Shown here: piece after piece, positions 47,566-49,262 of the stretch
How positions within the stretch are numbered: the first letter of the stretch is position 1
How the letters are laid out: each line of letters starts with the position of its first letter
DNA from: Gammaproteobacteria bacterium
Lineage (GTDB): Bacteria; Pseudomonadota; Gammaproteobacteria; Nevskiales; Nevskiaceae
Length of the DNA stretch: 64,000 bases
Assembly (NCBI GenBank): GCA_046565985.1
Contig: JBKHXN010000044.1
Coordinates: forward strand, 9,944-73,943
Direction of reading: 5' to 3'
Program-made: the position numbers and the translations under genes
Notes under the pieces: model-generated
The model's database searches: none
Seen by the model: only the letters and a program-made list of their open reading frames with translations
What the model was told of the DNA's origin: nothing

Positions 47566-48570
47566 CTATTCCGGCCGTGGCGGCCGCGTGGCCAGCACGC
47601 GCACCGCTTCGATGGGGCTGATCTGGCCGGTCAGCACCCGGTTGACCGCCTCAGTGATCGGCATCTCCACCCCGTGACGCGCGGCCAGACGCAGAACCTC
47701 GGGCGCGGCCTTGATGCCCTCCACCACCTGGCGGATCTCGGCGGTGGCCTCGGCCACGCTGCGGCCCTGTGCCAGCAGCAGGCCCATGCGGCGGTTGCGC
47801 GACTGGTTGTCGGTACAGGTCAGCACCAGGTCACCCATGCCGGCGAGCCCCATCAGCGTCTCCGGGCGGGCGCCCAGGGCCTCGCCCAGGCGCATGATCT
47901 CGGCCAGGCCGCGCGTGATCAGCGCCGCGCGCGTGTTGGCGCCCAGGTTGAGGCCATCGGCAATGCCCACGCCGATGGCCATGACGTTCTTGGCGGCGCC
48001 GCCGATCTCCACCCCGGGCAGGTCATCGGCGGTATAGGCGCGAAACCCGTCGCCGTGCAGCGCGGTGGCCACCTTTTCGGCAAAGGCGCCGTCGGCGGAG
48101 GACACCGTGACGGCCGTGGGCAGGCCGATCCCCAGCTCCTTGGCAAACGTGGGGCCGGAGATGACGGCCAGGGGGTGCGTGCGGCCGACCACGTCCTCGA
48201 TCACCTCGTGCACCAGAAGCCCGCTGCCCGGCTCCAGGCCCTTGCAGGCGCAGGCGATGCCCTGCCCCCTGCGCAGCAGGCCGCGGACGGCGAGCAGGGT
48301 GTCGCGCAGGGCGTGGCTGGGCGTGGCGATCAGCAGATCTTCCGACTGCCCCACCACCTCGGCAAGATCGGCGGTAGCCTTGAGCCGCAGCGGAAACGCA
48401 CAGCCCGGCAGATAGGCGGCATTCTCGCGCGCCTCCTGCATCTGCTGGAGCCTGGCGGCGTCGCGGCCCCACAGCAGGGTGGCGCCGCCGCGGCGGGCGA
48501 GGTGGATGGCCAGCGCCGTGCCAAATGAACCGGCGCCGAGTACCCCCATGCGATGCAGCTCCGTGCTCAT
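47566..48570 (-). CDS. gpsA: NAD(P)H-dependent glycerol-3-phosphate dehydrogenase
   Basis: GAGSFG, SGPTFAKE, KNVMAIG, GDLVLTCTDNQSRNRR and EMPITE. Confidence 0.97.
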   Translation of the reverse strand: MSTELHRMGVLGAGSFGTALAIHLARRGGATLLWGRDAARLQQMQEARENAAYLPGCAFPLRLKATADLAEVVGQSEDLLIATPSHALRDTLLAVRGLLRRGQGIACACKGLEPGSGLLVHEVIEDVVGRTHPLAVISGPTFAKELGIGLPTAVTVSSADGAFAEKVATALHGDGFRAYTADDLPGVEIGGAAKNVMAIGVGIADGLNLGANTRAALITRGLAEIMRLGEALGARPETLMGLAGMGDLVLTCTDNQSRNRRMGLLLAQGRSVAEATAEIRQVVEGIKAAPEVLRLAARHGVEMPITEAVNRVLTGQISPIEAVRVLATRPPRPE

Positions 48571-48764
48571 GCCCTTTCCCTCGCGCTGGCGCAACGCCTG
48601 CGCTTTGGCGAACCGCTGCTGCGCAGCTGTCGCGGGCTCCGGCGTGCCTTCGCCGTGCCAAATGAACCGGCACCGAGTACCCCCATGCGATGCAGCTCCG
48701 TGCTCATGCCCTTTCCCTCGCGCTGGCGCAACGCCTGCGCTTTGGCGAACCGCTGCTGCGCAGC
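48514..48764. repeat. 114-bp tandem duplication spanning the gpsA RBS and first 19 codons (48514-48627 and 48651-48764)
   Basis: The copies are identical except 48535 G versus 48672 A; 137-bp period with a 23-bp unique spacer. Confidence 0.95.
48567..48707 (-). CDS. Putative 46-aa upstream ORF created by the duplication (GpsA N-terminus plus basic tail)
   Basis: It has the same RBS as gpsA and encodes MSTELHRMGVLGAGSFGTAKARRSPRQLRSSGSPKRRRCASARERA. Its TGA overlaps the gpsA ATG (ATGA). Confidence 0.4.
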   Translation of the reverse strand: MSTELHRMGVLGAGSFGTAKARRSPRQLRSSGSPKRRRCASARERA

Positions 48765-48800
48765 GGCGGCGGATACAGGGCGTGGAGGGGGGTCACGGGC

Positions 48801-49262
48801 TCAGTGCTGGGTGGGGGCGGGGGCGGGCTGGGCGCGGGCCAGGTGCTGCTGGTAGAGGGCGTCGAAATTGACCGGCTGCAGCAGCAGCTGCGGAAAGCCG
48901 CCGCGCTGGACCAGCTCGGCGATCGCCTCGCGGGCAAACGGAAAGACCACACCGGGGCAGTAGGCACCCAGGGCGGCGGCCTTGTCCTGGGGGCTGCTGA
49001 AGCCCTTGAGGGTGAAGATGCCGCCCTGGTGGACCTCGGCGAGAAACGCCGTGTCCTCACCGAGCTTGGCGGTGACGGTGACGCGGAGCATCACCTGGTA
49101 GGCGTCGGCGGCCAGTTCGGTGGTATGGGTGTTGAGCTGCACATCCACCTGTGGCTGCCACTGGCGGGTGAAGACCTGCGGCGCGAGGGGGACTTCCAGC
49201 GAGGCGTCCTTGAGGTAGATTTTCTGCAGCAGCACCTGCGCAGCGGCGGGAGCGTCGGCCAT
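48801..49262 (-). CDS. secB: Protein-export chaperone SecB
   Basis: LQKIYLKDASLEVP, AFLAEVHQGGIF, YCPGVVFPFARE and GGFPQLLLQPVNFDALY. Confidence 0.97.
   Translation of the reverse strand: MADAPAAAQVLLQKIYLKDASLEVPLAPQVFTRQWQPQVDVQLNTHTTELAADAYQVMLRVTVTAKLGEDTAFLAEVHQGGIFTLKGFSSPQDKAAALGAYCPGVVFPFAREAIAELVQRGGFPQLLLQPVNFDALYQQHLARAQPAPAPTQH

Follow-up and report, generated by a model that had tools for sequence, protein, structure and literature searches.

Tandem duplication of 137 bp at the start of gpsA in related Nevskiaceae-like Gammaproteobacteria

Most short tandem duplications are transient, and near-identical direct repeats of 114 nt should soon disappear by recombination or slippage, as in plasmid repeat-deletion assays. 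An assay of this Lovett type is described in PMC7145654, which gives no wild-type rate. Translational coupling is known from overlapping gene pairs joined by ATGA or TGATG in E. coli and Haloferax (PMC6728339; review PMC12548453). Four of five tested E. coli gene pairs with a 4-nt overlap were translationally coupled, and removal of the Shine–Dalgarno (SD) sequence lowered reinitiation in four of five such pairs (PMC6728339). Other systems come close in layout. Leader-peptide attenuators of the trpL and ermCL type have a short frame directly upstream of, and touching, the regulated gene. Gene-end duplications at phage or island integration sites leave a displaced fragment beside an intact gene with a substitute start.

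The clade considered here consists of Nevskiaceae-like Gammaproteobacteria and includes carriers of a 137-bp tandem duplication of the gpsA translation-initiation region. Judged from its sequence, the locus should resemble a coupled overlapping gene pair in its behaviour and a slippage or unequal-crossover duplication in its origin. With the coupled pairs it shares a 4-nt same-strand ATGA overlap and a downstream SD sequence situated inside the upstream frame, and the secB–gpsA junctions of its own outgroups are of that type. However, the upstream partner is not a gene but a 46-codon frame which starts from the copied start of the downstream gene, and the coupling is one that we infer. With short tandem duplications that undergo gene conversion it has in common the head-to-tail copies, the 137-nt period, the loss of one unit in a close strain and the sharing of strain-specific changes. 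In contrast to those, the gpsA duplication covers the point at which translation of an essential gene begins, and lineages with an 18–33% difference at synonymous sites have it in common. The likeness to leader-peptide attenuators is one of position; here there is no terminator/antiterminator pair, no run of pathway-linked codons and no Rfam match, and the frame derives from the gene itself. An integration-site (att) duplication was considered and rejected. The fragment and the substitute leader are just 23 nt apart, neither an integrase nor an element body is present, and these 23 nt (spacer B) look like diverged native upstream sequence. What makes the locus unusual is the combination of an upstream partner which is a copy of the gene's own start, an essential target, and persistence with concerted evolution across lineages.

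The window, that is the whole stretch of 64,000 nucleotides that was analysed, comes from a metagenome-type assembly of 2.1 Mb in 140 contigs with 68% GC. Its minus strand carries, in this order, rhodanese, glutaredoxin, secB and gpsA genes (open reading frames, with Pfam labels from identical products). The locus comprises the following features:

49262..48801, minus strand: secB, 153 aa, the gene 5′ of the duplication (ORF; the exact product on contig L015 has PF02556 SecB)
48800..48765, minus strand: flank U, 36 nt, from the secB stop to the distal copy (from the sequence)
48764..48651, minus strand: distal repeat copy, 114 nt, made of leader (48764..48708) and gpsA codons 1–19 (48707..48651); 113/114 identical to the proximal copy
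48722..48712, minus strand: distal SD-like purine-rich tract, GAGGGAAAGGG (from the sequence)
48707..48567, minus strand: decoy upstream ORF, 46 codons plus TGA, MSTELHRMGVLGAGSFGTAKARRSPRQLRSSGSPKRRRCASARERA (ORF from the distal ATG)
48650..48628, minus strand: spacer B, 23 nt, AAGGCACGCCGGAGCCCGCGACA, equal to decoy ORF codons 20–27 (from the sequence)
48627..48514, minus strand: proximal repeat copy, 114 nt, made of gpsA's direct leader (48627..48571) and codons 1–19 (from the sequence)
48585..48575, minus strand: proximal SD-like tract (from the sequence)
48570..48568 (ATG) to 47568..47566 (stop codon), minus strand: gpsA, NAD(P)H-dependent glycerol-3-phosphate dehydrogenase, 334 aa, intact (ORF)

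The identity of gpsA, an essential gene of lipid synthesis, is given by an exact product on contig L016 with PF01210, PF07479 and PF20618, and by homologues of the product which are named GpsA in Nevskiaceae. The repeat unit consists of the 57-nt gpsA leader with its purine tract GAGGGAAAGGG and of codons 1–19 (MSTELHRMGVLGAGSFGTA), present twice head to tail with a period of 137 nt (TRF score 495). A single synonymous mismatch separates the copies, T at 48672 (GGT) versus C at 48535 (GGC), which leaves the initiation sites identical from −57 to +57 save one base. The whole secB–gpsA intergenic region measures 230 nt. Past codon 19, the decoy ORF reads B and the proximal leader in another frame, and its TGA (48569..48567) overlaps the gpsA ATG as ATGA (48570..48567). 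A first-pass annotation had described a duplicated 57-nt leader and 19 codons with one synonymous change and a 23-nt spacer, as well as a 46-codon upstream ORF whose TGA overlaps the true ATG; every one of these anatomical details was confirmed. A genome BLAST returned just the two adjacent copies in 2.1 Mb (E 2e-66 and 2e-53), and a dispersed repeat of the REP/MITE type was rejected on this ground. Spacer B occurs once in the window and, with as many as 4 mismatches allowed, once in the 2.1-Mb genome. An origin of B from elsewhere in the genome was likewise dismissed: a 16-mer in common with contig C88 lies in unrelated coding-like sequence and is at about chance level. The last 23 nt of flank U, here called u, do resemble B weakly (CACGCC...GCCCGC).

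Contigs of other samples carry the same structure:

L016, JGI 3300072659: begins within the distal copy, crosses B and continues into gpsA; its GpsA is 100% identical to that of the window
L113, JGI 3300072974: another strain, with identical c57–B–leader junctions
L101, JGI 3300072658: a 7975-nt contig with both copies, an identical B and a 230-nt secB–gpsA spacing
L019, L020 and L103, three SRA runs: a diverged copy of codons 1–19, then B, leader and gpsA (the duplication in truncated form)

Since L016 has GGC in both copies, it is a separate assembly and the mismatch of the window is a polymorphism. Some contigs have their ends inside the repeat: L015 stops 30 nt into it, and L018, L116 and L114 begin within gpsA codons 4–10, which are breaks of the kind that a real repeat produces. 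With at least four independent assemblies and three lineages, the contigs indicate that the duplication is genuine and inherited. Mixed strains could in principle have been mis-joined into an apparent duplication, as the window's genome is a 140-contig metagenome-type assembly and several contigs of other samples break within the repeat. However, at least four further assemblies, made from different samples by different assemblers, show both junctions. Moreover, copies that are well diverged (L101) or truncated (L019, L020, L103) are not confusable in an assembly graph, and breaks within the repeat are expected from a real one. We consider such an artefact highly improbable. The earlier verdict against an assembly slip is thereby borne out, with the same junctions on L016, L113 and L101 and truncated ones in L019, L020 and L103.

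An exact-pattern scan of a metagenome contig collection for the repeat gave no match, and a protein-guided scan of the same collection found relatives at 77% identity or less only. At least ten contigs (L104–L112; JGI 3300044452 and the 30000726xx/729xx series) with a glutaredoxin identical to that of the window all stop inside secB, short of the locus. This suggests co-occurring strains which break assemblies at this place. Window-type (L106) and L101-type contigs do co-occur in one sample, 3300072658.

Some relatives have simpler layouts. In contig L017, the secB–gpsA region measures 93 nt, equal to 230 minus 137, and holds one leader and one start; its GpsA is 97% identical to that of the window and its gpsA is 98.6% nucleotide-identical to that of L101. 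In the outgroups, which are species representatives of the same genus and family taken as Nevskiaceae from the names attached to homologues, gpsA starts 0–30 nt from the secB stop, often as TGATG, and has no leader. Loci L004, L008 and L009 and other genomes of the family place gpsA on or right after the secB stop (TGATG), and a secB–gpsA leader of 80–93 nt is limited to the small clade of the window. The leader is therefore a novelty of this clade and the duplication a further step within it. The abutting or overlapping outgroup junctions also imply that coupling to an upstream frame is the ancestral mode of gpsA translation here.

Over codons 20–272, synonymous differences per site (pS) in gpsA amount to 0.176 between the window and L101, 0.328 between the window and L019, and 0.033 between L017 and L101. 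The relationships are ((L017, L101), window), L019, for which the simplest history would be a single origin that predates the splits, followed by one loss in L017. The first-pass annotation had also offered a 'neutral recent event', and it is the second adjective that has to be withdrawn: synonymous sites of gpsA differ by 18% and 33% between the window and other carriers, and the two leaders of L101 are 7/57 apart.

How the copies have evolved is informative in itself. The leader copies within the window do not differ (0/57). In L101, the proximal leader is nearest to that of the window (3/57) and the distal one nearest to that of L017 (5/57). The 3′ end of the leader (AGCGAAAGGG versus AGCGCGAGGG) is lineage-specific in both copies, and L113 carries a strain-specific GGT GTA CTG in both copies. 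Such sharing of strain-specific changes within a genome points to repeated gene conversion between old tandem copies. Spacer B is unchanged in L101, L016 and L113 (0/23) and has a single change in L019 (1/23), and the proximal leader of the window differs at 3/57 positions from that of L101 and also from that of L019. For B and the proximal leader taken together, the window is 3/80 positions away from L101 (P=2e-4 against pS) and 4/80 away from L019 (P=2e-9 against pS). By comparison, u, which precedes the distal copy, differs at 5–6/23 positions between the window and L101 or L017, about the neutral level. On these counts B and the proximal leader appear much better conserved than synonymous sites, whereas u drifts.

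Since the CACGCC...GCCCGC elements stand in the same order in both, B is probably a diverged copy of u. The founding event was then probably a plain tandem duplication of 137 nt that took in the 57-nt leader, about 23 nt ahead of it and codons 1–19. A derivation of B and the leader from the 3′ end of secB was rejected at only about 40% identity (33/57 differences within L019).

L019 complicates this history. Its distal fragment begins 13 nt after the secB stop, at the site of the outgroup gpsA starts, and lacks a distal leader. In addition, its gpsA is a mosaic relative to that of the window, with pS 0.16 in codons 1–30 and about 0.45 in codons 31–180. Either L019 inherited the duplication and then lost 80 nt, or it may have imported a module of fragment, B, leader and start by homologous recombination from the clade of the window and L101. 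The co-occurrence of window-type and L101-type strains in one sample makes an exchange of modules plausible. Part of the apparent age could then reflect import of the module, not vertical descent.

Our preferred reading, to which we assign a probability of about 0.6, is that the duplication is a real, old and tolerated structural allele which is incidentally coupled to gpsA. The window, L016, L101 and L019 all have an intact decoy frame whose stop overlaps the gpsA ATG as ATGA. This frame probably hands ribosomes to gpsA by termination–reinitiation. Ribosomes would load at both near-identical initiation sites: initiation at the distal site is expected because the site matches that of gpsA from −57 to +57 save one base, and de novo initiation at gpsA is likely too because gpsA has its own SD. 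Ribosomes on the decoy would translate through the real SD, melt the leader and terminate on the gpsA ATG, where a fraction of them would reinitiate, so that the essential gene would still be expressed. The duplication would have survived because this architecture is benign. The net change in GpsA output would probably be small, from none to a modest rise, and the decoy peptide itself would be functionless. The ATGA overlap and the intact ORF of the carriers are compatible with coupling. However, any period of 2 mod 3 would give this phasing provided that the GC-rich frame is open, roughly a 1-in-5 accident by our own estimate, and the phasing is therefore not evidence of design.

Searches for RNA and regulatory elements returned little. 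Rfam covariance models gave 0 matches at E<=1 between 48300 and 49000, and a scan of the locus for sigma-70-like promoters found none. The one weak terminator-like match lies inside the repeated coding part and is within shuffle expectation; no alternative terminator/antiterminator hairpins follow the decoy ORF, and a leader-peptide attenuator was rejected accordingly. RNA folds were no stabler than shuffles (z-scores +0.13 to −0.70). A consensus fold of the leader has two compensatory pairs among six sequences which are all closely related, too little for a claim of structure. A candidate sigma-54 promoter at the junction of the fragment and B (48645–48660, minus strand; TGGCACGGCGAAGGCA, GG-N10-GC) was discarded as native gpsA (TGGCACGGCGCTGGCC) has the same spacing, which is probably a by-product of the Phe-Gly-Thr-Ala codons.

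Long persistence and the conservation of B may point to selection and not to mere tolerance. The decoy start and its ATGA would then have been kept as a relay or booster which restores or tunes the delivery of ribosomes to gpsA after a structured 80-nt leader broke the ancestral secB–gpsA overlap; in L019 the chain would run from the secB stop over 13 nt to the decoy ORF, ATGA and gpsA. The duplication has indeed persisted across pS 0.18–0.33 although repeats should delete readily, B and the proximal leader are conserved far above synonymous sites while the paralogous u is not, the ORF has kept an identical length and stop in all carriers, and the decoy ATG of L019 occupies the outgroup gpsA start position, 13 nt after secB. 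Yet L017, a close strain, manages with a single copy, and conservation of the proximal leader would be expected in any case, since gpsA is essential and this leader serves as its working 5′ UTR. An intact ORF is also statistically unsurprising at such divergence. Selection at the codon level is not apparent, as synonymous and non-synonymous changes are about equally frequent (3 and 3) in the part of the ORF made of B and leader, and an attenuator, a terminator, an Rfam family and an unusually stable fold are all absent. Sideways spread could also mimic both age and conservation. We therefore hold a selected regulatory device to be unlikely. A related proposal is that a selected start cassette, passed between co-occurring species by recombination, forms a self-contained translational relay which secures or raises GpsA synthesis after the loss of the secB–gpsA overlap. 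If true, gpsA would be a natural example of a gene which controls its own translation via a copy of its start; we regard the proposal as rather doubtful. Far less credible is a functional 46-residue basic peptide, an idea raised by the first-pass annotation which found no support. The ORF is intact in all carriers, but its N-terminal 19 residues include 8 replacements in L019, its tail is an out-of-frame reading of GC-rich leader and hence Arg-rich, and the substitutions in its unique part (again about 3:3) follow no purifying pattern. No homologous called protein was found among 5.8 billion, and neither the 46-aa nor the 54-aa form has an exact record as a called protein.

The other alternatives concern the age and the origin of the structure. 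It may have a single and fairly recent origin, with the c57–B–leader–gpsA 5′ segment recombined among co-occurring lineages, in which case its spread and the conservation of B would reflect recency and neither age nor selection. The mosaic gpsA of L019 fits such spread, as do its missing distal leader with the retained outgroup-like 13-nt distance from secB to ATG, the presence of window-type and L101-type strains in the same sample (3300072658), and a B which differs at only 0–1/23 positions everywhere. Against this, the proximal codons 1–19 of L101 are L017-like (3/57) and not window-like (5/57), which would confine an imported tract to about 80 nt, and the 7/57 differences between the distal and proximal leaders of L101 need time or a diverged donor. 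The distal fragment of L019 is also 15–17/57 away from all other copies, about neutral for the split of the lineages, which fits vertical descent. A young, spreading module is thus possible, though we do not expect it to be the correct account. Still more improbable, in our assessment, is an insertion scar, whereby foreign or element-borne DNA made of B, the proximal leader and codons 1–19 was inserted behind gpsA codon 19 and brought a replacement start, through homology-facilitated illegitimate recombination or from an integrative element since decayed. Seen from L019, the layout is that of an insertion after codon 19 of exactly 137 nt, complete with SD and start; the genome contains the B/leader sequence nowhere else, and GGCACG stands on either side of the junction. 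However, an integrase and an element body are absent, B resembles u as expected of a diverged native upstream copy, and the layouts of the window and L101 are explained by a plain tandem duplication without foreign DNA.

Under the preferred reading of an old and tolerated allele, a short tandem duplication on the initiation site of an essential gene would have survived species-level divergence, evolving in concert and being lost at least once. The clade and its relatives offer a natural series of four states: no leader (outgroups), a single leader (L017), a duplicated start (window, L101) and a truncated duplication (L019). This series could be used to gauge the contribution of a phased upstream ORF to translation and the persistence time of near-identical direct repeats. 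For annotation, the locus carries a warning, as the first gpsA-like start after secB in the duplication carriers of this clade is the decoy.

Other tandem repeats occur in the genome. One repeat family of 132–138 nt forms arrays of 2–4.7 copies at C7:18970-19304, C40:635-897, C51:8933-9592, C75:3780-4158, C78:3886-4274 and C113:3916-4351. It contains the GC-rich palindromes GTCATTCCCGCGCACGCGGGAATCC and CCCCGTTTGCACGGGGATGACGG and sits for the most part near the ends of contigs or on short ones. A 137-nt period in common with other tandem repeats had suggested an artefact, either mechanistic or made by the assembler. This was rejected: these arrays are one family without sequence relationship to the gpsA repeat, and the likeness in period is a coincidence. 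A second unique two-copy tandem duplication, of 124 nt with 119/124 identity, is found at C37:7591-7832 and covers the last ~23 codons, the stop and downstream sequence of a gene for a TerC-like membrane protein. Lastly, a 143-nt unit present 1.9 times (120/143) at C86:3259-3526 opens with the 3′ end of a tRNA gene (TCGATTCCTGCCGGGCGCGCCA); its appearance is that of an att-site duplication which an integrative element has left behind.
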